DNA of 64,000 bases, from assembly GCA_020859685.1 (NCBI GenBank), contig JAJBVT010000053.1, positions 11,809 to 75,808 on the forward strand, read 5' to 3'. Of this stretch, positions 3,759 through 63,721 are shown piece by piece. The stretch comes from Rikenellaceae bacterium (GTDB taxonomy: Bacteria > Bacteroidota > Bacteroidia > Bacteroidales > Rikenellaceae). The notes below the pieces were generated by a model. The model was not told where the DNA came from. It did no database searches and was given only the letters and a program-made list of their open reading frames with translations. Position numbers and translations under genes: made by a program. Numbering within the stretch: position 1 is the first letter of the stretch; each line of letters starts with the position of its first letter.

Positions 3759-3952
3759 AGCATATTATCTTATATGGTCGGAAAGAGGCCGGATTACAGA
3801 AATCCAATCCCTATCCACCGGCTTCGGTTTAACCCTGATACAACCCTTATGCCGTTAATATATGATTTAACCCGGTTAACACGGTAAGCCGGAGTAAATA
3901 TCAGGGAAAAAGGCTCGCCTTCATCTCACAAAACCCGATAAGCGATAGGTAC

Positions 3953-3984
3953 AAAAAAATACGGGGACCCTCCCGGGCACCCGT
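3953..3984 (-). terminator. Intrinsic terminator closing fimbrial operon 1
   Basis: GC-rich imperfect hairpin ACGGGGACCC-TCCC-GGGCACCCGT (3961-3984). On the minus strand it is followed by a U-run (plus-strand A-run 3953-3960). Confidence 0.6.
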
Positions 3985-4075
3985 ATCTCAACCAATTTTT
4001 AAATGAAAATCAAATTTTTTACATAAAATATTAATAATCAACACTCTTTGCAACTACCCCTAGTACGCAGAGTGT
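3953..4075 (-). ncRNA. Conserved structured 3-prime element, copy 1 of 3 (putative 3-prime-UTR RNA or sRNA)
   Basis: Begins 16 nt after the stop of the 4091-7156 gene. Stem ACACTCT..GC/GCAGAGTGT (4041-4075) encloses the invariant ACTACCCCTAG (4053-4063). Then an AT-rich spacer, TCAACCA (3988-3994) and the terminator. The same layout recurs at 23648-23775 and 52992-53134. Confidence 0.45.
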
Positions 4076-4090
4076 TTTACCTTAGGGTCG

Positions 4091-11113: not shown

Positions 11114-12481
11114 TTAAAGTTCGCCGGGCATATAAACGCCTTCCCAGTTGAGTACCTGGATAGTTACGTGGATGTATGCATCCGGGTCGAGCGGTTCGGG
11201 ATTCTCCGGCCTTCCGCCGTCTTCCTCGTTCCAGCCGAGGCTGGTCACTTTGGTAATCTCGATATCCCAGTACTGGTTGCGGTGCTGTGAGTATTTGTCC
11301 GCGGTAGTGGTCGGGGGAGTGTTACCCAGGGAGCTGTCGAGGTAGATCCAGTAGTACATCAAACCGCCATCGTATTTGAAAGCCGCTTCGTTGGCGCCGA
11401 GTTGGATTACCGGGTCCCCACTGTAAAGTTTATTGTCGGCAGCCCAGTTCACCAGGTCGCCGTTCGAATCTACGGTACCTATCCTCCAGAAATCGTCACC
11501 GGGATTCCATGTACCGGAAGTCACCAGAGCTCCGTTCGCGTCATACCATACGGTGGGAGAGAACACACCTTTAATCGATGCGTAGGTAGCGTTACCGTAA
11601 CGGGCGGTCATATTACTGTTCTCCATCATATAGGTAGGCTCTTCATGGTTGTAGCTGCCGTCGAGGCCGGTTTTCGACCAGTCGGCCTGAGCCCAGTAGT
11701 TGTTGGCATGCACATCGGCCCAAATGCTGTTGTTCCTGTCGAAATACGGGGTCCTCCAAACACCGGACGCATCATAGGTGGTGAAGAGGTACATCTGGTC
11801 GGGCTGGTTTTTGATACGGTACTCCACGTCCGACATGGTTCCGAGAACCGTCGCTCCGGTGGCGTTCCCGTCGGTTACTTCGATGTCTTCATCGTAGTAA
11901 ACACCTACTTTGGCAACCGACCGACCGAGCTTGATGGTGATGTTGTTGTGGTGGTTCGGAGTTTCAGCCTCGTTCTTGGTCGCGCTTACCACCGTATGCG
12001 AAAGCAGCTCGGAAGCCATCCAGAAAGAGTTGTCGACGGTGAGGGTGTCGTTGAAAGCGACCTCGTCTGCGATGTTCACGATATAGCTTTCGAAATTGGC
12101 GGCCGTCATACCTTTGGTCCACACCGGAGTCATATTCGCGGTAGCGGCGAATATTTTAGGACCGGTGGTGATAAGGGCAGTCTGGCTCAGCACGGAGGGT
12201 GTGAAATTCAGCACGTCTTCGATGGTCTGGGTAGCGACGTCGTAGATGTAGAGGTCGATGGTTGAAACTGTTCCCTCTTCCGTCGTAGGCGCGGTATCAC
12301 CGTGGAACGCGCGGGAGTTTGCGTTGGCGATGCTGATGGTGAACGTAGTGTAGGTCTGTTCTCCCGTTGCCTCGGGTGTGGTTTCATCGGGATCGAGATC
12401 GATGTCTTTGTCACCGCTCTTCGAACAAGCAGCAAGTGTCAGGACAGCCAGAGCTGCCACAAGGGTTGATCTGAAGTTCAT
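11114..12481 (-). CDS. Mfa1-family fimbrial major subunit
   Basis: 455 aa with lipobox LAAC. N-terminal TYTTFTISIANANSRA (Arg-type propeptide site) and IDLYIYD. Paralogous to 59879-61405, including similar C-terminal ends. Confidence 0.7.
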   Translation of the reverse strand: MNFRSTLVAALAVLTLAACSKSGDKDIDLDPDETTPEATGEQTYTTFTISIANANSRAFHGDTAPTTEEGTVSTIDLYIYDVATQTIEDVLNFTPSVLSQTALITTGPKIFAATANMTPVWTKGMTAANFESYIVNIADEVAFNDTLTVDNSFWMASELLSHTVVSATKNEAETPNHHNNITIKLGRSVAKVGVYYDEDIEVTDGNATGATVLGTMSDVEYRIKNQPDQMYLFTTYDASGVWRTPYFDRNNSIWADVHANNYWAQADWSKTGLDGSYNHEEPTYMMENSNMTARYGNATYASIKGVFSPTVWYDANGALVTSGTWNPGDDFWRIGTVDSNGDLVNWAADNKLYSGDPVIQLGANEAAFKYDGGLMYYWIYLDSSLGNTPPTTTADKYSQHRNQYWDIEITKVTSLGWNEEDGGRPENPEPLDPDAYIHVTIQVLNWEGVYMPGEL

Positions 12482-15012: not shown

Positions 15013-15381
15013 TCAACCGGTGCTGTTTTCCACCAGATTCTTCCATACCTTTTCCGAGCGCATAAAGCCGGGAAAATCATGGCCGGGCCGCCCATCGCAA
15101 TCCTTGAAACAGGGTGCGCACATCACCAGCAGGTCCCACATCGACAGTTCGTAGAACTTCTTTCGAAGGTGCAGCAGCCCTCCAGACTCCGATAGTATAC
15201 CGTAATCGGTAAGCAACGCAAGCGACGTACGTACCATCGGTAACTCACCCTCGGCGAATCCCTTTAACAGGTTGCTCCGTTCTATACCTTTACCCTCTCC
15301 ATCGGCATACATGAAGGATACCACTCCCAAGAGGGTATAAAGGAATTCGAATTGTGGGGTAAACAATACTTCGTCCTTCAT
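15013..15381 (-). CDS. Small conserved protein, first gene behind the invertible promoter (possible winged-helix regulator)
   Basis: 122 aa from the ATG at 15381 (MKDEVLFTPQFEFLYTLLG...). Paralog of 61763-62134 in the same position in locus 2. The longer track ORF (to 15594) would run through the inverted repeat and the promoter. Confidence 0.6.
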   Translation of the reverse strand: MKDEVLFTPQFEFLYTLLGVVSFMYADGEGKGIERSNLLKGFAEGELPMVRTSLALLTDYGILSESGGLLHLRKKFYELSMWDLLVMCAPCFKDCDGRPGHDFPGFMRSEKVWKNLVENSTG

Positions 15382-15418: not shown

Positions 15419-15435
15419 GTCACTTCGGGAGTGAC
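15419..15435. repeat. Inverted repeat, operon-proximal (switch A)
   Basis: GTCACTTCGGGAGTGAC, the exact reverse complement of 15748-15764. Confidence 0.85.
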
Positions 15436-15466
15436 AATTCGGAAAACATCAATTACTAATCCTGAG

Positions 15467-15474
15467 CAAATGTA
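15467..15474 (-). promoter_or_regulatory. Bacteroides-type -7 box TACATTTG (TAnnTTTG) inside inverton A
   Basis: Plus-strand CAAATGTA. It lies 31 nt from the repeat and reads toward 15381. Homologous boxes sit at the same distance in switches B and C. Confidence 0.55.
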
Positions 15475-15747
15475 AAAAATAATTTCTATTATCGATACAC
15501 CCCTTCGATAAAATTTATATTTTCCGTACGACCTGAATATATAGAACTTATAATTTATTTTAAGAGAATTACTACCCCCGATTAATATATACATCTATAA
15601 ACAATCGATTCTCTTACGCTATTCCTATGCCCTTCCGGGCCCATTATTTTCTTCTGTTCATTACTTTCTGTTTGCCGAATGTTTGGTGAACTCTTCTAAT
15701 AGATACAATCCGTCGCTCTGTTTTACAGGTCGGTACCTATGATTGTT

Positions 15748-15764
15748 GTCACTCCCGAAGTGAC
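15748..15764. repeat. Inverted repeat, recombinase-proximal (switch A)
   Basis: GTCACTCCCGAAGTGAC, separated from the integrase stop by 29 nt. Confidence 0.85.
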
Positions 15765-15793: not shown

Positions 15794-17026
15794 TTATGCG
15801 GCCTCGATAAATCTCGAGAGCCGGTTGCTCAGTTCGTCTATTTCGGAGCGTTCGAACGAGGCGAGGTAAATGGAGGTAACTTTCGGGTCGCGGTGCCCGA
15901 GCCCTTCGCCAATCAACATGATACCGTACCCCATTCTTTTAGCTAAAGTCGCCCATGTGTGGCGGGCAACATGCGTGGAAAGGCTGCTTGTTATTCCCGC
16001 CAGCAGGGATATCTCCTTCAACAACCTGTTCTGCCGGTTCAAAGCGGCTTCGTACCCGGATGGATGAGAAACGCCCTCCGCCATTATCGGGAAGACATAC
16101 GGAGACCGGTTTGTCTCTTTTTTGAAATAGCCGATAATCCTCTTCATGGGTTTGGTAATCCTGACCTGCAGAAAAAAACCGGTCTTACGCCTTTTATATC
16201 GGATGGTATCGCCTTTTATATCGGATTTTTTCAGGTGGGCCAGGTCTATGAACGACATACCGCGGGAGTGGTATGCAAACAGGAAATACATCAGTGCGTG
16301 CCGGAGATTCCTTTTTCCCGCGGGAATCTTTTTCCCGAGCGCGACCAGCGAGTTCATTTCCTTTTGGTCGAGCGCCCGTCTTCGGGTCTCGTACACACCG
16401 GTATAAACATCCTCGAAGGGGTTGGATTCACATTTGCGAATCAGGTTCGCCTTAACGGCGCGGTAATATATCGCCCGGATATTTCGCATATAAAAAGAGA
16501 TTGTATTCATCTGGAGGCCATTGTCCAGAAGGTGCCTCTCGAATGCCCTAATCAGTTTGGGGGTTATATCCGACACTTTTAAGTCCTCCGACCCGGCGAA
16601 CGCGGCCAGCTTCTTCGCGGCGCAGCGGTAGGCCCTTGCCGTCCTGTGGCGCTCCTGTTCCTCCAGCTCGCGGCTGAGAAGTGATGAGAACGATAATAAA
16701 TTGTAGGGCGAGAGCGAACCGTTGAATTCATCGACGATATCTCCGAGACCGTACTCCCCCGCAGCGGAAAGTTTCCGCAGGATAGAGGAGAGGCGTTCGA
16801 GGTCGGCGTTCATCATTTCCTCCAATTGCAGAAGGTGCCGGGTCCGCCCGTTTTCCGCATCGCACGGAATAACCAACCTGCGGCGGACAGGGTCCCACTC
16901 TTCGGGGTAGACCGGGTAGCCCCTCCTTAAATCCCGGTATTTACGCCTGAGGATTAACCGGATAAACAGGGTACCCGGTTTGTCCGGCCCATCCGGACTA
17001 CGGAAATGAAATCTGAAACTTGTCAT
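15794..17026 (-). CDS. Tyrosine site-specific recombinase (phage-integrase family), candidate invertase of switch A
   Basis: Catalytic blocks HVARHTWATLAKRMGY and GLGHRDPKVTSIYLA (H-x-x-R, H, Y). Start chosen at MTSFRFHF by alignment with the paralog 62483-63721 (MTSIRFHY). Confidence 0.85.
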   Translation of the reverse strand: MTSFRFHFRSPDGPDKPGTLFIRLILRRKYRDLRRGYPVYPEEWDPVRRRLVIPCDAENGRTRHLLQLEEMMNADLERLSSILRKLSAAGEYGLGDIVDEFNGSLSPYNLLSFSSLLSRELEEQERHRTARAYRCAAKKLAAFAGSEDLKVSDITPKLIRAFERHLLDNGLQMNTISFYMRNIRAIYYRAVKANLIRKCESNPFEDVYTGVYETRRRALDQKEMNSLVALGKKIPAGKRNLRHALMYFLFAYHSRGMSFIDLAHLKKSDIKGDTIRYKRRKTGFFLQVRITKPMKRIIGYFKKETNRSPYVFPIMAEGVSHPSGYEAALNRQNRLLKEISLLAGITSSLSTHVARHTWATLAKRMGYGIMLIGEGLGHRDPKVTSIYLASFERSEIDELSNRLSRFIEAA

Positions 17027-17299
17027 AATGGTAATATTTATAATAAGTGGATGTATAGTCATGCAAATTTACATTATTACAAATAATACGACCTTTTGGA
17101 CTATTTTTTAATCCGTTTTTATAGTAAAGAGCAGCCAACCGGAATTATTACCATGCGGGTTTTGCCAAAATTAAACCTCTTCCGGATATCGAGGCGGGCG
17201 CCAGCCCTAATACTTTGTGCGCCCTCTTAGCTTCCGTGTATGTTTTATCCGGTCGATAGTCGGGAAATGTTTTATCGGACTTAAAATATTTTGCATATT

Positions 17300-21212: not shown

Positions 21213-23558
21213 ATGAAAATCAGAGGATTATTTTTAGTAACCCTTGCATTGTTGTTTGCAGCGGAACTGAGCGGTCAGCCTCACGGCTTCGGGAACGGCC
21301 GGACGGCCAAATGGATTGCACCGGCCGGCTGCCAAAACGAACCCAACACCTGGATTACATACAAGAAAACCGTGGAAACGGACAGGCTTCCCGAGGGCGA
21401 TATTTATGCCGATATTGCCGTGGACAGCAAATACTGGCTATGGATCAACGGGCGACAGGTGGTTTTCGAAGGCGGCCTGAAACGCAGCCCGAACCCGGCG
21501 GATACATACTTCGACCGAGTCGACCTCACCCCCCACCTCGTACCGGGCAGAAACGATATAGCCGTACTTGTCTGGTACTTCGGCAAGGAGGGGTATTCCC
21601 ACAAAACCAGCGGTCACGCGGGGCTGCTGTTCGACTGCCCCGGTGCCGGAATCGTTAGCGACGGCAGTTGGCGCTGCACCGTCCTTCCCGAGTACGGAAC
21701 CGCGGGAGACCCGCAGCCCAATTATCGCCTACCGGAATCTAGTATCCTCTACGATGCCCGTATCGCCACCGAGGGGTGGTGGCAGCCGCAGTTCGATATC
21801 GCGGGTATGCCGTATGCCGTGGAGGTCGGCAGTGCGGAGGACGGACCATGGGGCAAGCTCGTAGAGCGGCCGATACCGCAATGGAAGGACTACGGGCTTA
21901 AAGATTACCCCGCCCGGCAGACCGTAAGCGGGTCCGTATACGATACCGTGATATGCACACTTCCATACAACGCCCAGATAACGCCCTGGTTCGATATCGA
22001 GGCGGACAAGGGCGACCATATCCTAATAATGACCGATAATTATCTCCGCTACAACGGCGGGGAAACCAACCTTCGCGGCGAGTATATCGCCCGGCAGGGA
22101 CGGCAGGAGTACGAGAACCCGGGCTGGCTGAACGGACACAAAGTCTACTACCTGTTCCCGAAGGGGGTGAAAGTCCACGGTCTGGGATACCGGGAGACGG
22201 GTTATGATACGGAGTTCGAGGGGATGTTCCGGTGCTCGGACCCGTTTTTCAACGCCCTGTGGGAGAAATCGGTGAGGACCCTCTACATTACCATGCGCGA
22301 TAGCTATATGGACTGCCCCGACCGCGAACGGGCGCAGTGGACCGGGGATGCCGTAAACGAGTCCGGCGAGGCGTTCTACGTACTGTCGCAATCGAGTTAT
22401 GACCTGAGCCGGAAATGGCTTTACGAGACCATCGGCGGATGGCAGCGCGAGGACGGCAGTATCTACTCGCCGACCCCTTCCGGAAACTATTTTTCCGAGC
22501 TGCCCGCACAGTCGCTCGCCACGGTCGGTTATTACGGGTTATGGACCTATTACCTTTATACCGGCGACATCCGGCCGGTGGCGGACCTTTTCGACAATGT
22601 AAAGCGATACCTCGACCTCTGGGAGATTGACGACCGGGGCCTCGTAAAATACCGTGAAGCCGGTTGGAACTGGGGCGACTGGGGCGACAACCGGGATATG
22701 CTCCTGATATACAACCTCTGGTACTATCTTGCGGTGAAGGGAATGTATTACGGCGCCGTCGAATTGGGCAGGACGGAGGATGCCGACAATTACCTGTCGT
22801 ATATGACCCGGTTCGTCGAGGCGTTCAAGGCCTGTTTCTGGACCGGCAACGAGTACCGCGACCCGGATTATACCGGAGAGACGGACGACCGCGTACATGC
22901 GCTGGCCGTGGTATCCGGTGTGGCCGGAGAAGATAAATACCCGGCAATCCTCGGGGTTTTCCAACGTCAGGAGCATGCCAGCCCCTACATGGAGAAATAC
23001 GTATTCGAGGCTATGATGCGAATGGGTTACGCATCCGAAGCGATGGACCGTCATAAAAAACGGTTCGGAAAAATGGTGGACTTCCCGCTCACCACACTGT
23101 TCGAGGGGTGGGGAATCGGTCCCGAGGGATTCGGCGGAGGAACGGTAAACCACGCATGGAGCGGAGGCGGACTTACCGTACTCTCGCAGTACGTGTGCGG
23201 TGTGGCGCCCACCGAGCCGGGATGGGAAATGATGCACGTTTTGCCGGTACCTGGATACCTTACGGAGGCTGAAATCTCCGTTCCTACGGTCAAAGGTACG
23301 GTCGAAAGTAAATTTACGACGGACGGCGACGGTTTTAACCTGTCCGTCACCATACCGGAGGTTCGGACCTGCGTGATTGGCGTTCCGGCCGACGGCGCCG
23401 GGAGCGTCTTCCTGAACGGTGAACTTATCTGGACCGGGGGGAAATTCGTCGACAACGGTTCGGGCGCAAACCCCCGGGAAGACATAACCGGCCATATCGC
23501 GGTGGAGGTCGGTCCGGGAAGTTATGAAATGACCCGGACAGGGGGAGTACTGTTTTAG
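21213..23558 (+). CDS. GH78-like (alpha-L-rhamnosidase-related) six-hairpin glycoside hydrolase
   Basis: Start moved to MKIRGLFLVTLALLFAAELSGQ (signal peptide). Motif MDCPDRERAQWTGDA resembles the rhamnosidase catalytic-domain box. Confidence 0.6.
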   Translation: MKIRGLFLVTLALLFAAELSGQPHGFGNGRTAKWIAPAGCQNEPNTWITYKKTVETDRLPEGDIYADIAVDSKYWLWINGRQVVFEGGLKRSPNPADTYFDRVDLTPHLVPGRNDIAVLVWYFGKEGYSHKTSGHAGLLFDCPGAGIVSDGSWRCTVLPEYGTAGDPQPNYRLPESSILYDARIATEGWWQPQFDIAGMPYAVEVGSAEDGPWGKLVERPIPQWKDYGLKDYPARQTVSGSVYDTVICTLPYNAQITPWFDIEADKGDHILIMTDNYLRYNGGETNLRGEYIARQGRQEYENPGWLNGHKVYYLFPKGVKVHGLGYRETGYDTEFEGMFRCSDPFFNALWEKSVRTLYITMRDSYMDCPDRERAQWTGDAVNESGEAFYVLSQSSYDLSRKWLYETIGGWQREDGSIYSPTPSGNYFSELPAQSLATVGYYGLWTYYLYTGDIRPVADLFDNVKRYLDLWEIDDRGLVKYREAGWNWGDWGDNRDMLLIYNLWYYLAVKGMYYGAVELGRTEDADNYLSYMTRFVEAFKACFWTGNEYRDPDYTGETDDRVHALAVVSGVAGEDKYPAILGVFQRQEHASPYMEKYVFEAMMRMGYASEAMDRHKKRFGKMVDFPLTTLFEGWGIGPEGFGGGTVNHAWSGGGLTVLSQYVCGVAPTEPGWEMMHVLPVPGYLTEAEISVPTVKGTVESKFTTDGDGFNLSVTIPEVRTCVIGVPADGAGSVFLNGELIWTGGKFVDNGSGANPREDITGHIAVEVGPGSYEMTRTGGVLF

Positions 23559-23647
23559 ACCCGAAACGGGGCGCCGGGTAGTAACTCTTTCCGGCCCCTG
23601 TATTATATCAGACATAATCGCCCAGTATCATTCATTATGTATTACAT

Positions 23648-23775
23648 ATAAAAAGCACGGGGGACCTCACGGCCGCCCGTACCGATGTTTCAACCAGATT
23701 CTTCGAATTTGCATTCGAAGACTGTTCAAATAAATATGATATAAATCCCCGGCACTACCCCTAGTGCCACATCAC
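23648..23775 (-). ncRNA. Conserved structured 3-prime element, copy 2 of 3 (orphan; no upstream CDS)
   Basis: Stem GGCAC/GTGCC (23751-23768) around ACTACCCCTAG (23754-23764). TCAACCA at 23690-23696. Hairpin at 23657-23680 followed on the minus strand by a U-run. Lies 94 nt downstream of switch B. Confidence 0.45.
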
Positions 23776-23869
23776 GGGGATACGTTTGGGTTTTTCCCTG
23801 TCGTCCCCATAGGTCCGGAGGAGTACCGCATTTGCGTCCTTTTCAGTTACAAGTTATGTTTCGATAACC

Positions 23870-24169
23870 GTCACTTAAGGAGTGACGGATAGGCAAACAG
23901 AAACCTGTCGGTACAAATGTAAAAATAAAATTTATTTATCTAATCATAACCGCAAAAATCTTAATTTCCGATGCTGTAATCCCATTCGGGGCCAATGCAG
24001 TATTCGTATCTTTAATCACCGTTGCCCCGGACAAATCCAAGAACCGGATTTCCCGTGTAGATATTTGCGGAATGTTTGTTACCGGTTACGTCGGAAGAAA
24101 TTTAAAGTAACTGTTAACCAATAAATTATAGCCGTAGTCAGATTCCAGTATTGTCACTCCTTAAGTGAC
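23870..24169. promoter_or_regulatory. Orphan invertible promoter segment (inverton B)
   Basis: GTCACTTAAGGAGTGAC (23870-23886) and its exact reverse complement GTCACTCCTTAAGTGAC (24153-24169) bracket 266 bp. There is no recombinase gene or fimbrial CDS next to it. Confidence 0.65.
23914..23921 (-). promoter_or_regulatory. -7 box TACATTTG inside inverton B
   Basis: Plus-strand CAAATGTA 27 nt from the left repeat. The surrounding sequence gtacaaatgtaaaaataaaattt resembles gagcaaatgtaaaaaataatttc in switch A. Confidence 0.5.
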
Positions 24170-24271
24170 ATACGATATACCTCCCCGAAGATTATAATGT
24201 TACATGCAAGCGACAGAATAGCCGGCAAGGGGTGGCCCGTTACGGCGGAGTAACCTCCCCGCAAAATAACA

Positions 24272-24298
24272 GACCCGTCCTTCCGGGAAGAACGGGTC
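24272..24298 (-). terminator. Intrinsic terminator of galE
   Basis: GACCCGT...ACGGGTC hairpin 25 nt after the galE stop, followed on the minus strand by UGUUAUUUUG. Confidence 0.55.
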
Positions 24299-24322
24299 CG
24301 TATTATCAGATGCCGACGGTAA

Positions 24323-25348
24323 TTACAACCCTCTGAGGTGCTTCTCCCACGCCCAAGCGGAGCGGAGGGTCTCTTCGAGACTGCGTTCGGCCTTCCAGCC
24401 CAGCTCGGTGTTGGCCAGCGTGGTATCCGCCCACACCGCCTCGACGTCGCCCGCACGGCGGCCCACGATTTTATACGGAACCGCGACCCCGTTCACCTTC
24501 TCGAACGTGCGCACCAACTCCAGTACCGAGACCGGCCGACCCGTACCTATATTAAATATCTCGTACCGCTCTTTCATTCCGCCGCCGACCATCCTGCCGA
24601 CGGCCACAACGTGCGCCTTGGCAAGGTCCACCACGTCGATATAATCCCGGAGGGCGGTGCCGTCCTCCGTATTGTAATCGTCGCCGAATATGCTGAGCCG
24701 GTCGCGGACACCGGCGGCCGTCTGGGTAATAAACGGTACGAGGTTGTTCGGTACCCCCTTTGGCAGTTCCCCTATAAGCGCAGAAGGGTGGGCTCCTATG
24801 GGATTGAAATAGCGCAGGGCTATCCCGCTCAGGCCCGCGTAGGCCGCAACACTGTCCCGCAGGATATCTTCGCAAATCTGTTTGGTATTGCCGTAGGGCG
24901 AGGTAGCCGGTTTACGCGGGGTGCTCTCGGTAGCGGGAAGTATGTCCGGCTGGCCGTACACCGTGGCTGACGACGAGAACACGATATTGGGAACCCCGTA
25001 CTCCTTCATCAGCTCCAGCACGGTAACGAACGACCCGAGATTGTTCCCGTAGTACAACAGCGGCTGCTCCACCGATTCGCCCACCGCCTTGCTGGCTGCG
25101 AAATGGATGACCCCGCAGAAGTCGTGCACCTTGAAAACTTCTTCGAGGGCAGCCCTGTCGTTACAGTCGGCCTTCACGAACGGTATCTCCCGGCCGGTGA
25201 TTTCCCGCACCCCCTCGATTGCCGACAACTCGGAGTTCGACAGGTCGTCCACCACCACCACTCCGAAACCGGCATTTATAAGTTCGACCGCCGTATGGGT
25301 CCCGATATATCCGGCCGCACCGGTTACAAGCACTTTTCCTTTTTCCAT
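24323..25348 (-). CDS. galE: UDP-glucose 4-epimerase
   Basis: Start at MEKGKVLVTGAAGYIGTH (Rossmann GxxGxxG). SDR-extended Y-x-x-x-K (PYGNTK). About 340 aa. Confidence 0.85.
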   Translation of the reverse strand: MEKGKVLVTGAAGYIGTHTAVELINAGFGVVVVDDLSNSELSAIEGVREITGREIPFVKADCNDRAALEEVFKVHDFCGVIHFAASKAVGESVEQPLLYYGNNLGSFVTVLELMKEYGVPNIVFSSSATVYGQPDILPATESTPRKPATSPYGNTKQICEDILRDSVAAYAGLSGIALRYFNPIGAHPSALIGELPKGVPNNLVPFITQTAAGVRDRLSIFGDDYNTEDGTALRDYIDVVDLAKAHVVAVGRMVGGGMKERYEIFNIGTGRPVSVLELVRTFEKVNGVAVPYKIVGRRAGDVEAVWADTTLANTELGWKAERSLEETLRSAWAWEKHLRGL

Positions 25349-52901: not shown

Positions 52902-52991
52902 TTCCGCCCGTGAAGATAAATGTTTTTTGCTTAACATTATTTTTTTGCAAACCAATGTAAAATCAGCGACCACCGGAAGTATTAGACGGAT

Positions 52992-53134
52992 AAAAAATAC
53001 GGGGCGCCTCCCGGCGGCCCGTACTTAATTTTTCAACCAAATAATTGCTAATTGATGAAAATCAAACTATATAAAAATAAATATTGAATAAAATTCCCGC
53101 CCGTGCGGCCACTACCCCTAGGGCCGCACCGGGA
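52992..53134 (-). ncRNA. Conserved structured 3-prime element, copy 3 of 3, with intrinsic terminator of fimbrial operon 2
   Basis: Nested stems TCCCG/CGGGA and GTGCGGCC/GGCCGCAC around ACTACCCCTAG (53111-53121). TCAACCA at 53033-53039. Hairpin at 52999-53022 followed on the minus strand by a U-run (52992-52998). Starts 14 nt after the stop of 53148-56093. Confidence 0.45.
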
Positions 53135-53147
53135 GAGATATTGTGTC

Positions 53148-61762: not shown

Positions 61763-62134
61763 TTATACTATATAAGATAAACTGAGTGGTTCCGACCGGG
61801 TGAAGGATTTCAATAATTCATACCGGCCGTTATCCGGCGGATCGGCATTTTCCAGCCACGGCTCGGCAATAATCAACAGGTCCCACACGCTCATTGAGTA
61901 GAACCGGCAGCGGTTGAGATACATAGCGCCTTCCCGGATGGAAACTATTCCGTTATCCTCCAGCAGGCACAGTAGTGAACATGTAGTTGTTTTACAGGAG
62001 CGGATGATATTAACGAAGGCCTCCCACTCCACTCCTTTTCCTTCGATACCGGCATACATATAGCTAAACGTCCCAAGGAGCCGATATACTTCCTCGAAGC
62101 GTTTGCTGAATAATATTTTATTATCATCTTTCAT
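61763..62134 (-). CDS. Small conserved protein, first gene behind inverton C (paralog of 15013-15381)
   Basis: 123 aa, MKDDNKILFSKRFEEVYRLLGTFSYMYAGIEGKGVEW..., collinear with MKDEVLFTPQFEFLYTLLGVVSFMYADGEGKGIER... Shares ..SMWDLL/SVWDLL... Confidence 0.6.
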   Translation of the reverse strand: MKDDNKILFSKRFEEVYRLLGTFSYMYAGIEGKGVEWEAFVNIIRSCKTTTCSLLCLLEDNGIVSIREGAMYLNRCRFYSMSVWDLLIIAEPWLENADPPDNGRYELLKSFTRSEPLSLSYIV

Positions 62135-62158: not shown

Positions 62159-62479
62159 AACCGTCACTCTTCAAGTGACGTGGCACAGGGTGATACGAGA
62201 TGATAATAGTCTGTATTTTAGTTGAAAGGGTATATGTCGAAGAGTGATACACGAAACAGCGGACAAACTCCTAATCTGCGGGTTTCAGGACGAAGTTTTC
62301 CGTTGCCGAAGGGAAGTCGGGGTAGTTTTGATATATAACGGGGCTGTAACTATCTTTGGTAAATGGGGTTAGAAAAATCAAATTTTTGTAAATAAGTATT
62401 GACAAAAGAAAAATTATTTTACCTTTGCTGTGCGATCGTGCTCCGATGTTTCCGAACCGTCACTTGAAGAGTGACGGTT
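62159..62479. promoter_or_regulatory. Invertible promoter segment (inverton C) of fimbrial locus 2, present in the OFF orientation
   Basis: 22-bp perfect inverted repeats AACCGTCACTCTTCAAGTGACG (62159-62180) and CGTCACTTGAAGAGTGACGGTT (62458-62479). The cores GTCACT-N5-AGTGAC are at 62163-62179 and 62459-62475. The internal -7 box points away from the operon. Confidence 0.7.
62420..62427 (+). promoter_or_regulatory. -7 box TACCTTTG (TAnnTTTG) inside inverton C
   Basis: Lies 31 nt before the right repeat. The context aaattattttacctttgct...gatgtttccgaacc is homologous to the minus strand of switch A (aaattattttttacatttgct...gatgttttccgaatt). Confidence 0.55.
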
Positions 62480-62482
62480 TTT

Positions 62483-63721
62483 TTATGCCGCCCGTACTGC
62501 CCGAGACATCCTGGTACTCAATTCGTCCAGCGCCGACCGCTCGAACGACGCGAGATAAATCGAGGTAACTTTCGTATCCCTGTGGCCCAAACCCTCGCTT
62601 ATCAACGATATATTGTACCCCATCCGTTTGGCGAGTGTGGCCCAAGTATGGCGGGCGACATGTGTGGAGATATTCTTCTCAATACCCGCCAATCCGGCCA
62701 GTACCTTTAAATATCGGTTCTGGCGGTTAAGTGCCGATTCGTAACGGAGCCGGTAATCGGATGCAGCCGGATCGATGATAGGGAATAAAAAAGGAGAACC
62801 TTTTGTTGCCGCTTTAAACCGGTCGATAATCCTTTTCATCGGCCTTGTAATCTTCACCTCGATATAAAATCCCGTCTTCTTTCTTTTATAGATTATGGAG
62901 CCATCCTTTATATCTGATTTTTTAAGATACGCCAGGTCGATGAAAGACATTCCCCGCGAATGATAGGCAAAGAGAAAATAGAGCAGCGCATTGCGAAGCT
63001 CGGTGTCGCCGGGCGGGAGTTTCTTTTCCAGTCCGGCCAGAGCGTTTATATCCTGCCTGTCGAGGGAACGGCGGCGCGTATCGTATACTCCGGTATAGAC
63101 GTTCCCGAAAGGGTTGGTTTCGGCAGGCACTATAATTTCCGAGGCCACCGCACGGTTGTATAATGCCCTAAGGTTGCGCATATAAAACGAAACGGTATTC
63201 ATATGGAGACCCGTATCCAGCAGCCACCTCTCGTATTCGCGCAACCTGAAAGCCGTAATTTCGCATAAAGGCATATCCTGCCCGTGGTTGAACTTAACGA
63301 TGCTCCTGGCCGCCGAGCGGTAAGCGCGGGCGGTTCTCACTCTGCCCTCTGCGTTAAGCTCACGGGCCACTGTACCTGCAAACGCAATCACGGTATCACG
63401 GTTTCCTGTTTTATGGAATCCGTCGACAACGTCGCCGACCGTGAAATTACCCGTCTTAGATAGCGCCTTTACAATATCCTCCAACCGCGAGAGGTCTGCC
63501 CGCATCGACTCTTCAGTCTGTCTAAAGCACATATACCGCTCTCTTTCCGTCGCTGTCGGCATCCGCAGCCAATGGGAACCGAAGTCCCAATCCTGAGGGT
63601 TTACGGGGTAGTTGCGCCTGATATCACGGTACTTACGCCCGTGTATTATCCGGATAAATAACGTACCGGAACCCGCCTCCCCTGTAACCGGGGGGCGGTA
63701 GTGAAACCTGATACTCGTCAT
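62483..63721 (-). CDS. Tyrosine site-specific recombinase (phage-integrase family), candidate invertase of switch C
   Basis: 412 aa. STHVARHTWATLAKRMGY and GLGHRDTKVTSIYLA. Paralog of 15794-17026. Its stop is separated from the inverted-repeat core by 7 nt. Confidence 0.85.
   Translation of the reverse strand: MTSIRFHYRPPVTGEAGSGTLFIRIIHGRKYRDIRRNYPVNPQDWDFGSHWLRMPTATERERYMCFRQTEESMRADLSRLEDIVKALSKTGNFTVGDVVDGFHKTGNRDTVIAFAGTVARELNAEGRVRTARAYRSAARSIVKFNHGQDMPLCEITAFRLREYERWLLDTGLHMNTVSFYMRNLRALYNRAVASEIIVPAETNPFGNVYTGVYDTRRRSLDRQDINALAGLEKKLPPGDTELRNALLYFLFAYHSRGMSFIDLAYLKKSDIKDGSIIYKRKKTGFYIEVKITRPMKRIIDRFKAATKGSPFLFPIIDPAASDYRLRYESALNRQNRYLKVLAGLAGIEKNISTHVARHTWATLAKRMGYNISLISEGLGHRDTKVTSIYLASFERSALDELSTRMSRAVRAA

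Follow-up and report, generated by a model that had tools for sequence, protein, structure and literature searches.

Why would an invertible promoter be kept at a place where it has no protein gene to drive? The question is raised by a locus in a 64,000-nucleotide (nt) stretch of DNA, here called the window (contig JAJBVT010000053.1, assembly GCA_020859685.1), whose source NCBI labels a Rikenellaceae metagenome-assembled genome (MAG). In the 765-bp gap that separates two convergent genes, a rhamnosidase-like gene on the plus strand and galE on the minus strand, lies an inversion switch that we call the orphan switch. Its promoter points at a conserved, terminator-bearing RNA element, the 3' module. 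Comparison with related genomes indicates, with little doubt, that the locus is the ghost of a third recombinase-controlled type V pilus operon in an uncultured, Alistipes-like member of the Rikenellaceae. On balance, we believe that this stripped remnant is still a minimal transcription unit whose conserved parts are being maintained.

The switch is built on a perfect inverted repeat. Its arms, GTCACTTAAGGAGTGAC at 23870-23886 and GTCACTCCTTAAGTGAC at 24153-24169 (both as read on the plus strand), are complementary at 17 of 17 positions and enclose an invertible segment of 266 bp (23887-24152). We refer to the promoter-distal arm on the galE side (24153-24169) as site 1 and to the promoter-proximal arm (23870-23886), which is identical in the related loci L088, L090, and L107, as site 2. 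An earlier interpretation made without database searches (the sequence-only reading) had described perfect 17-bp repeats around 266 bp, with neither a recombinase gene nor a fimbrial coding sequence. Both points were confirmed, the second by inspecting open reading frames (ORFs) and similarities in the gap: from the rhamnosidase-like gene to galE, no ORF with recombinase or pilus similarity was found. Each arm is itself nearly palindromic, with the form GTCACT-N5-AGTGAC. This class of sequence occurs six times in the window against 0.08 expected, a count reached by none of 100 shuffled sequences. Beyond the orphan switch, it forms inverted pairs at exactly two places, 15419/15748 and 62163/62459.

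These two places are the sister switches A (15419-15764, minus strand, core TCGGG) and C (62163-62475, minus strand, core TGAAG/CTTCA). Each is located directly downstream of a tyrosine recombinase gene (recA at 15794-17062 and recC at 62483-63721, respectively) and upstream of a minus-strand pilus operon. Both operons contain a small unannotated ORF and genes for FimA-like, Mfa2-like, and large tip-type proteins, to which operon A adds DUF3575 and OmpA-like proteins. Switches A and C are recombinase-linked type V pilus switches. The promoter of switch A is ON, toward its pilus operon; that of switch C is OFF, with the -7 box directed back at its recombinase gene. The orphan switch has the same GTCACT-N5-AGTGAC sites with GGnTnnnnAAAC flanks as A, C, and the switches of loci L099 and L104. 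In the window, it has no tyrosine recombinase gene directly upstream, whereas the orthologous loci of relatives do. No pilus structural genes lie downstream of it, only 19 relic codons and the 3' module.

The promoter of the orphan switch lies in a conserved block, GATAAATAAATTTTATTTTTACATTTG, which is directed leftward (23914-23940, minus strand). The assignment is a consensus match: the putative -7 box TACATTTG at 23914-23921 is 27 nt from site 2, within the block aaattttatttttacatttg, and a Bacteroidetes TAnnTTTG box is found at the same position in all switches of the family. Switch A has aaattattttttacatttg at the equivalent place, directed into its operon. The match between aaattttatttttacatttg and aaattattttttacatttg agrees with the sequence-only reading, which had placed a minus-strand -7 box at these positions in switch-A-like sequence. 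Its geometry also held: the promoter aims into the module now and would aim toward galE if flipped. From its sequence, the orphan promoter is likely still active. RNA synthesis would then start near 23908, pass through site 2, which could form a 5' hairpin, and through a 38-nt leader and the relic frame, and end after ~260 nt at the conserved terminator of the module, near 23648. This predicted transcript has a folding z-score of -4.5 as a whole and of -3.9 for the module alone; none of 200 shuffled sequences did as well.

The leader (23832-23869, minus strand) extends from site 2 to the start codon of a lost first ORF and aligns with L088 and L090 through ATGCGG.AC. Its 38 nt are comparable to the 37 nt in switch A and the 28 nt in switch C. 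A relic frame of 19 codons follows (23772-23831, minus strand; MRYSSGPMGTTGKNPNVSP and a stop), in which homology to the pilus operons' small first ORF is limited to ATG CGG (T/A)AC. Past these three codons the frame is not conserved in relatives, and no homology was found between the window's 32 leftover nt and the relatives' remnant of the ORF. The frame starts at the retained ATG of the lost ORF, and its stop codon lies in the internal loop of the first hairpin of the module.

The origin of the locus was traced in relatives represented by L088/L089, L090, and L091-L093 with L107, whose GalE proteins are 95, 94, and 93% identical to that of the window. L088/L089 and L090 have the gene order of the window, except that a gene for a 412-aa tyrosine recombinase ("recB") stands between the galE terminator and the switch. 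Next come 17-bp sites identical to those of the window, a 278-bp segment whose promoter block is that of the window and is oriented alike, ~350 nt of leader, the 3' module, and the convergent rhamnosidase gene. The contigs of L091-L093 end in or just past the recombinase gene, short of the switch, and the contig of L107, from the same sample as L093, begins within the switch, from which point promoter, site 2, leader, 3' module, and rhamnosidase gene are as in L088/L089 and L090. No pilus genes are present in the orthologous loci L088/L089, L090, and L107. Since recB is 63% identical to recC and 57% to recA, it is a third paralog.

The relatives' leader opens with ~35-43 codons homologous to the small first ORF (E values of 1e-5 to 9e-5), and weaker similarity extends to about residue 85. 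A frameshift in L088 and a stop codon turned into Leu in L107 mark this remnant as a decaying pseudogene. Similarity to pilus-operon proteins in the remnant was confined to the small first ORF, with no match to a tip protein. In the window, the leader and ATG CGG (T/A)AC are retained, and the next ~290 nt of the relatives are missing. On the other side of the switch, an 88-nt stretch (24176-24263) stands where the relatives have 1.5 kb including recB, since the flanks align window 24264 with L088 11087 and window 24175 with L088 12607. A search for a remnant of recB in this filler gave no significant result (19 of 300 shuffled sequences scored as well).

The ancestral locus would have comprised, in order, the galE terminator, recB, the invertible promoter, the small first ORF, the pilus genes, the 3' untranslated region (UTR)/terminator module, and the convergent rhamnosidase gene. 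The pilus genes would have been lost in the sister lineages, and the window would have lost recB as well, keeping three codons only of the first ORF. The sequence-only reading had suggested a ghost fimbrial locus, and the dedicated recombinase and decayed piece of first ORF kept by the sisters support it; the resemblance to a tip-adhesin gene that it cited as evidence of a deletion was wrong. It had also suggested comparing related genomes for a full operon. None turned up in those compared here, but the same site in relatives held recB, identical recombination sites, the ORF remnant, and the module.

The sequence thought to be coding is in fact part of the module. The sequence-only reading took gtatccccgtgatgtgg as the remnant of a coding end of the ..IRCVV type. 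We rejected a relic of a tip-adhesin C terminus, as gtatccccgtgatgtgg is the 5' strand of hairpin 1 and aligns downstream of the stop codons of the intact operons.

The 3' module is an element of ~135 nt found at three places in the window: after the last gene of operon A (3949-4085), after that of operon C (52988-53144), and at the orphan switch (23646-23790, minus strand). The orphan copy scored 110.9 bits with the covariance model of the module. It consists of hairpin 1, an AU-rich spacer with a window-specific 9-bp hairpin, the UGGUUG motif, and a terminator. Hairpin 1 (23745-23781, minus strand) is long; its lower stem differs in sequence from copy to copy, with compensatory changes, and its cap is an invariant CUA-GGGG-UAG (23755-23764). 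Named beside this loop as a module motif is UGGUUGAAAC. The UGGUUGAAACA motif (23686-23696, minus strand) has a UGGUUG core that does not vary between copies; when the single sequence is folded, the motif is paired in part, and the consensus structure leaves it unpaired. The intrinsic terminator (23646-23683, minus strand) is predicted to have a stem of 11-12 bp (UACGGGCGGCC/GGUCCCCCGUG), a GUGA loop of the GNRA type, and then CUUUUUAUAU, and it is found on the minus strand only. Its consensus, UACGGG..CC-GNRA-GG..CCCCGU plus a U run, is nearly invariant in six copies and contains compensatory changes. A simple terminator scan missed it, probably owing to the internal stem mismatch.

In the alignment of six copies, 98% of cells were paired, compared with 42-51% in slid controls, and compensatory double changes were seen in 8 of 25 pairs, a result that none of 500 shuffled alignments reached. 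The module therefore has a conserved secondary structure with covariation, as is looked for in a regulatory RNA. No family of Rfam 15 matched it (best scores of 10-18 bits, with thresholds of 40-75), and its motifs occur nowhere else in the window. When 1.6 Mb of fetched loci was scanned with the covariance model, only the training copies were recovered; the best match outside the training set (L011, E value of 0.06) was rejected as an ordinary terminator. Scans of JGI metagenomes with one switch-specific pattern and one module pattern gave no matches for either. We also searched for targets. Complements of the two invariant motifs occur at chance frequency in the window, and in an RNA duplex energy screen against the 5' regions of 44 genes, whole sequences zipped together, which left the screen uninformative. 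As a separate observation, UGGUUG(AAAC) at 23686-23696, 53029-53039, and 3984-3994 (minus strand) is similar to the GGTTnnnGAAAC sequence that flanks the recombination sites, either by coincidence or as a distant recombinase-binding site.

Are these parts conserved beyond what common descent would leave? The synonymous divergence (dS) of galE between the window and the relatives is 0.93-0.98, near saturation, so that unconstrained DNA is expected to be only ~46% identical. Site 1 with 6 nt of its outer flank is identical at 23 of 23 positions (L088, L090), the promoter block at 26 of 27, and site 2 with its flanks at 38 of 43. The leader is ~70% identical and the 3' module 74%, with every motif intact. 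The remaining ~195 nt of the invertible segment, that is, its interior except for the promoter block, cannot be aligned between the window and the relatives. The recB gene is under purifying selection, with a ratio of nonsynonymous to synonymous substitution rates (dN/dS) of 0.13-0.15 among L088, L090, and L091. In this set, L088 and L090 are cargo-less. The contig of L091 stops short of the switch, but L107 is cargo-less too and comes from the sample that also yielded L093, whose GalE is identical to that of L091.

A further comparison was restricted to L088, L090, and L107. Because the same deletion is common to all three, their differences postdate the loss. Variable sites amounted to 13.0% at third codon positions of the rhamnosidase gene, 9.0% in the switch interior, 8.1% in the leader, 7.2% in the post-terminator spacer, 4.5% in the ORF remnant, and 2.7% in its distal part. 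In the 3' module, 1.4% of sites varied (2 of 143), and in site 2 and its approach, 0 of 34. Among all 143-nt stretches of the 3.2-kb alignment, variability was lowest in the module, and every such stretch of the rhamnosidase coding sequence exceeded it (minimum of 3 and mean of 9.5 variable sites). The sole substitution within hairpin 1 changes a G-C pair to G-U. Judged by this pattern, selection seems to be maintaining the sites, the promoter, and the 3' module, which do not look like decaying sequence. The claim of the sequence-only reading that the intact repeats, promoter, and RNA fold reflect selection and not chance is supported by all three comparisons: the deep one, that of recB, and the post-loss one.

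Does the switch still turn? All assemblies that span it have the promoter facing the module, namely the window and L001-L003, contigs of the same species from other samples, and L088, L089, L090, and L107 of the relatives. A search from the rhamnosidase side for contigs in the flipped orientation returned already known contigs only. The family, in contrast, has been assembled in both orientations: A is ON, and C, L099/L101, and L104/L105 are OFF. Because sister switches were assembled ON or OFF, the switch class as a whole does flip. Contigs often end at these switches. Four of seven contigs of the window species stop within or at the orphan switch (L006 at 23892, L004 at 23900, L005 at 23973, and L007 at 24165), those of relatives break ~45 nt before site 1 (L091) and 21 nt inside site 1 (L107), and L102/L103 stop 27 nt past a paralogous recombinase gene. 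Such ends of MAG and Logan contigs are suggestive, being the pattern expected of mixed orientations. Their exact positions were rejected as proof of inversion, as they misfit a simple k-mer branch model. Whether the orphan switch still inverts in this genome is a question on which we lean slightly toward no.

Without recB, the switch would be flipped in trans, as the sequence-only reading had proposed, by the two paralogous recombinases, whose genes are 7 and 38 kb away, or it would be locked as it is now. Flipping in trans is plausible by analogy, since the sister sites have the same GTCACT/AGTGAC half-sites and the two cores of the orphan switch match each other. For well-studied tyrosine recombinases, the core must match between partner sites and not between loci. 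We observed that each locus of the family has its own 5-nt core between the common GTCACT/AGTGAC arms: TCGGG, TAAGG, CTTCA, GCGTA, and TTGGA in the sites at 15419-15435, 23870-23886, 62163-62179, L099 ~11238, and L104 ~11245, respectively. The lox511/lox2272 sites of Cre and the FRT-F3/F5 sites of FLP likewise have identical recombinase-binding arms and a spacer that must match between partner sites. The likeness lies in shared arms with differing spacers. The lox and FRT variants are engineered sites, however, whereas these are natural paralogous switches. By this analogy, the distinct cores resemble natural heterospecific spacers and could block recombination between loci yet permit cross-reaction of the recombinases. 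Tsr recombinases of Phocaeicola vulgatus and Bacteroides fragilis do invert distant promoters (PMC12940148).

From the sites, promoter, and module looking selectively maintained, it follows that the module probably has a role of its own. At a minimum, it would terminate and insulate a promoter that is probably still active, and the terminator would keep the transcript from entering the rhamnosidase gene in antisense. The module may additionally be a regulatory or protein-binding RNA that the intact operons carry as their 3' UTR. Its invariance at the sequence level suggests such an additional role at the RNA level. From the sequence comparisons, we hold the notion that the RNA has a function beyond termination only tentatively and consider it less probable than its absence.

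Several points weigh against an orphan switch that is maintained as a minimal transcription unit. Its promoter and terminator are consensus or fold predictions. None of the eight spanning assemblies showed it flipped. The structure counts come from four independent lineages and from a model-guided alignment that was fitted to the structure, and no extra copies of the module were found outside the clade in the fetched loci or the JGI metagenomes. Among GTDB representatives and GalE/rhamnosidase relatives, none was found to have an intact pilus operon at this site, so that the ancestral layout is inferred from the remnants and from the A and C paralogs. If the losses were recent and independent, most of the conservation seen between the window and relatives could be older than they are, and the 5' edges of the deletions differ. 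The post-loss test relies on three closely related, recombining lineages, of which L090 and L107 are near-identical in the switch and 4.6% apart in the rhamnosidase gene. Finally, the distal remnant of the first ORF, which has no conserved reading frame, is almost as invariant as the module.

What else could explain the locus? It may be an inert fossil, in which the loss of pilus genes, first ORF, and recombinase is so recent that the remaining parts are still intact, and the switch is locked and unused. The loss was stepwise (the relatives are without pilus genes; in the window, recB and the ORF are gone too), the ORF remnant is visibly decaying by the frameshift in L088 and the stop change in L107, and a single orientation is seen in all spanning assemblies, as a fossil would show. 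The strains of the window species are 99.8-100% identical and therefore uninformative on constraint after the loss of recB. In relatives with the shared deletion, however, the module varies at 2 of 143 sites while neutral proxies vary at 7-13%, and it lies below any equally long stretch of the neighboring coding gene. The time was long enough for change, because the leader, the switch interior, and the post-terminator spacer do vary, and recB is intact in these relatives (dN/dS of ~0.14). We therefore regard a pure fossil as unlikely, though as a serious alternative to the maintained transcription unit. The cargo-less switch could also act on its neighbors, with the promoter modulating galE when flipped, or the rhamnosidase gene by read-through in the present state, through antisense RNA or polymerase collision. 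In the convergent 765-bp gap, either orientation does point at the 3' end of a gene. Yet strong terminators precede both genes (23646-23683 and the galE hairpin at 24269-24301), and in the relatives the flipped promoter would face recB and not galE, so that the galE-facing arrangement is a by-product of the deletion. Neighbor regulation is for these reasons very improbable. A chance repeat or assembly artifact, for which nothing more can be said than that the source is a MAG, is refuted: the 17/17 repeat belongs to a class common to two recombinase-linked switches, in numbers that no shuffle reached; three independent contigs span the locus at 99.8-100% identity; and the same sites are present in three other lineages.

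A stronger form of our reading, close to what the sequence-only reading proposed, assigns the locus to the RNA itself. The module would be a trans-acting small RNA (sRNA), released from the 3' UTRs of the pilus operons, and the orphan locus would make it alone, either phase-variably or constitutively. CUA-GGGG-UAG and the consensus-unpaired UGGUUG are invariant in three paralogs and three orthologs on covarying stems, this conservation exceeds what a terminator needs, and the relatives show constraint after the loss. In every assembly the promoter faces the module, whereas the sister switches with cargo are mostly OFF. There is precedent in the UTR-derived sRNAs of Bacteroides (PMC7366714) and in FimR2 from the 3' UTR of a fim operon (PMC9723502). 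Against this, the motif complements occur at chance frequency in the window and no target was identified, Rfam gave no match, and the module was not found outside the clade. A further objection is the deletion in the window of ~290 nt whose conservation among the relatives is good; should their RNA depend on this part, the window's version would be crippled. A dedicated sRNA of this kind is somewhat less probable still than the fossil. We give about the same modest weight to a broader version, in which the module is a functional RNA, a regulator or a protein decoy, and the locus may have been kept through successive deletions as the gene for that RNA alone, switched by recB in the sisters and here flipped by a paralog or fixed ON.

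Side observations were made on the recombination sites, the relatives' alignment, and the first ORF. Flanks of the GGnTnnnnAAAC type stand on both sides of site 2 and form an extended palindrome around it (23854-23902; inverted repeat I2, with 22-nt arms that are 77% complementary). This flank motif is present in all switches of the family and is probably an extra recombinase contact. With one GGnTnnnnAAAC on the inner (promoter) side and one on the outer (leader) side, the ON state creates a symmetric site of ~45 bp, and the 5' end of each ON transcript in the family can fold into a hairpin that matches the palindrome of site 2. Across L088, L090, and L107, the genealogy is mosaic (12650-15842 in L088 coordinates): 3 of ~420 positions in the switch and leader distinguish L090 from L107, against 4.6% in the adjacent rhamnosidase gene. 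Homologous recombination among the three is indicated by this difference in divergence between the switch/leader and the rhamnosidase gene. The distal ORF remnant (L088 13073-13260; 2.7% variable) may be part of a functional RNA or may reflect a recent recombination sweep.

The first ORF after every switch of the class encodes a conserved protein of ~123 aa with the pattern KILFS.RF..VY.LLG.FSYMY..KGIER...WDLLIIAEPWL. Copies are located in the window at 61763-62134 and 15013-15381 (both on the minus strand), in L099 at 11597-11974, and in L104 at 11573-11959. No Pfam or NCBIfam match was found for it. Its AlphaFold model, of low confidence (predicted local distance difference test score of 62), resembles the Rrf2-type winged-helix regulators IscR, NsrR, and CymR (E values of 0.02-0.1, TM scores of 0.5-0.65). 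According to this model, the product may be a phase-variably expressed DNA-binding regulator.

Of the two flanking genes, galE (24323-25348, minus strand) encodes a UDP-glucose 4-epimerase (Pfam Epimerase/GDP_Man_Dehyd; GalE by NCBI name) and ends toward the switch. Between galE and the switch lies the galE terminator hairpin (24269-24301, minus strand), which has a 15-bp stem and is conserved in L088. The gene at 21213-23558 (plus strand), convergent with the switch transcript, encodes an alpha-L-rhamnosidase-like glycoside hydrolase (Pfam Bac_rhamnosid6H and Bac_rhamnosid_C). Orthologs of recB and the rhamnosidase were found in this one small clade only, with next-best matches of 66 and 60% identity; for the rhamnosidase, identity falls from 82% to 60% outside the clade. 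In more distant relatives by GalE (87, 83, and 81% identical), unrelated genes follow galE, with no ancestral operon. Among 80 loci of GTDB representative genomes anchored on GalE, the nearest is 74% identical, and none has the site class, the module, or the synteny.

How does the locus compare with known systems? Tsr-controlled invertible promoters of Mfa1/type V pilus and extracellular polysaccharide loci have been described in P. vulgatus (BVU2677/BVU2684) and B. fragilis (BF2766) (PMC12940148). There, as at switches A and C, type V pilus genes are driven by an invertible promoter that the recombinase gene immediately precedes. The Tsr recombinases cross-react with distant switches, and one B. 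fragilis switch has no recombinase of its own, like the orphan switch. The Tsr repeat motif is TACTTNNNANGTAANNGAA, in contrast to GTCACT-N5-AGTGAC here, and the recombinase-less B. fragilis switch drives protein-coding genes, whereas the orphan switch drives none. In Escherichia coli, the fim operon, whose invertible promoter fimS is switched by the tyrosine recombinases FimB/FimE, yields the 3' UTR sRNA FimR2 (PMC9723502); as part of the operon mRNA, this RNA is in effect phase-variable. FimR2 has demonstrated targets, and the operon from which it is processed is intact. The orphan locus has no operon body and only a predicted RNA role, and the organisms and pilus types are unrelated. UTR-derived sRNAs are also established in Bacteroides (PMC7366714).

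Invertons of gut Bacteroidales have been cataloged by PhaseFinder and DeepInverton (PMC11602134; Jiang et al. 2019 Science). In these catalogs, short inverted repeats flank a promoter of the TAnnTTTG type beside surface-structure genes, as at the orphan switch, whose family is likewise assembled in both orientations, and function is defined by the downstream gene. In the literature, we found no report of a Bacteroidales inversion switch with a conserved, terminator-bearing RNA module as its only downstream content, and none of a cargo-less switch that is maintained together with its recombinase. The origin of the locus is ordinary; its conservation after the loss is unexpected.

Invertible promoters of gut Bacteroidales are read through the protein genes that they drive, and switches that lack obvious cargo tend to be passed over. 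The orphan switch can be followed back to a lost pilus operon, and its sites, its promoter, the recombinase of sister species, and an RNA module are conserved. The locus also provides a natural experiment on whether paralogous recombinases act on one another's sites. If the RNA is not functional, the locus offers a clean, dated decay series of a phase-variable operon, in which the cargo was lost, then the regulator ORF, and then the recombinase. If the RNA is its only product, it would be the first DNA-inversion switch in Bacteroidota with a non-coding RNA as sole product. If that RNA is functional, phase variation would extend to regulation at the RNA level, and the 3' ends of pilus operons would be regulatory elements and not plain terminators.

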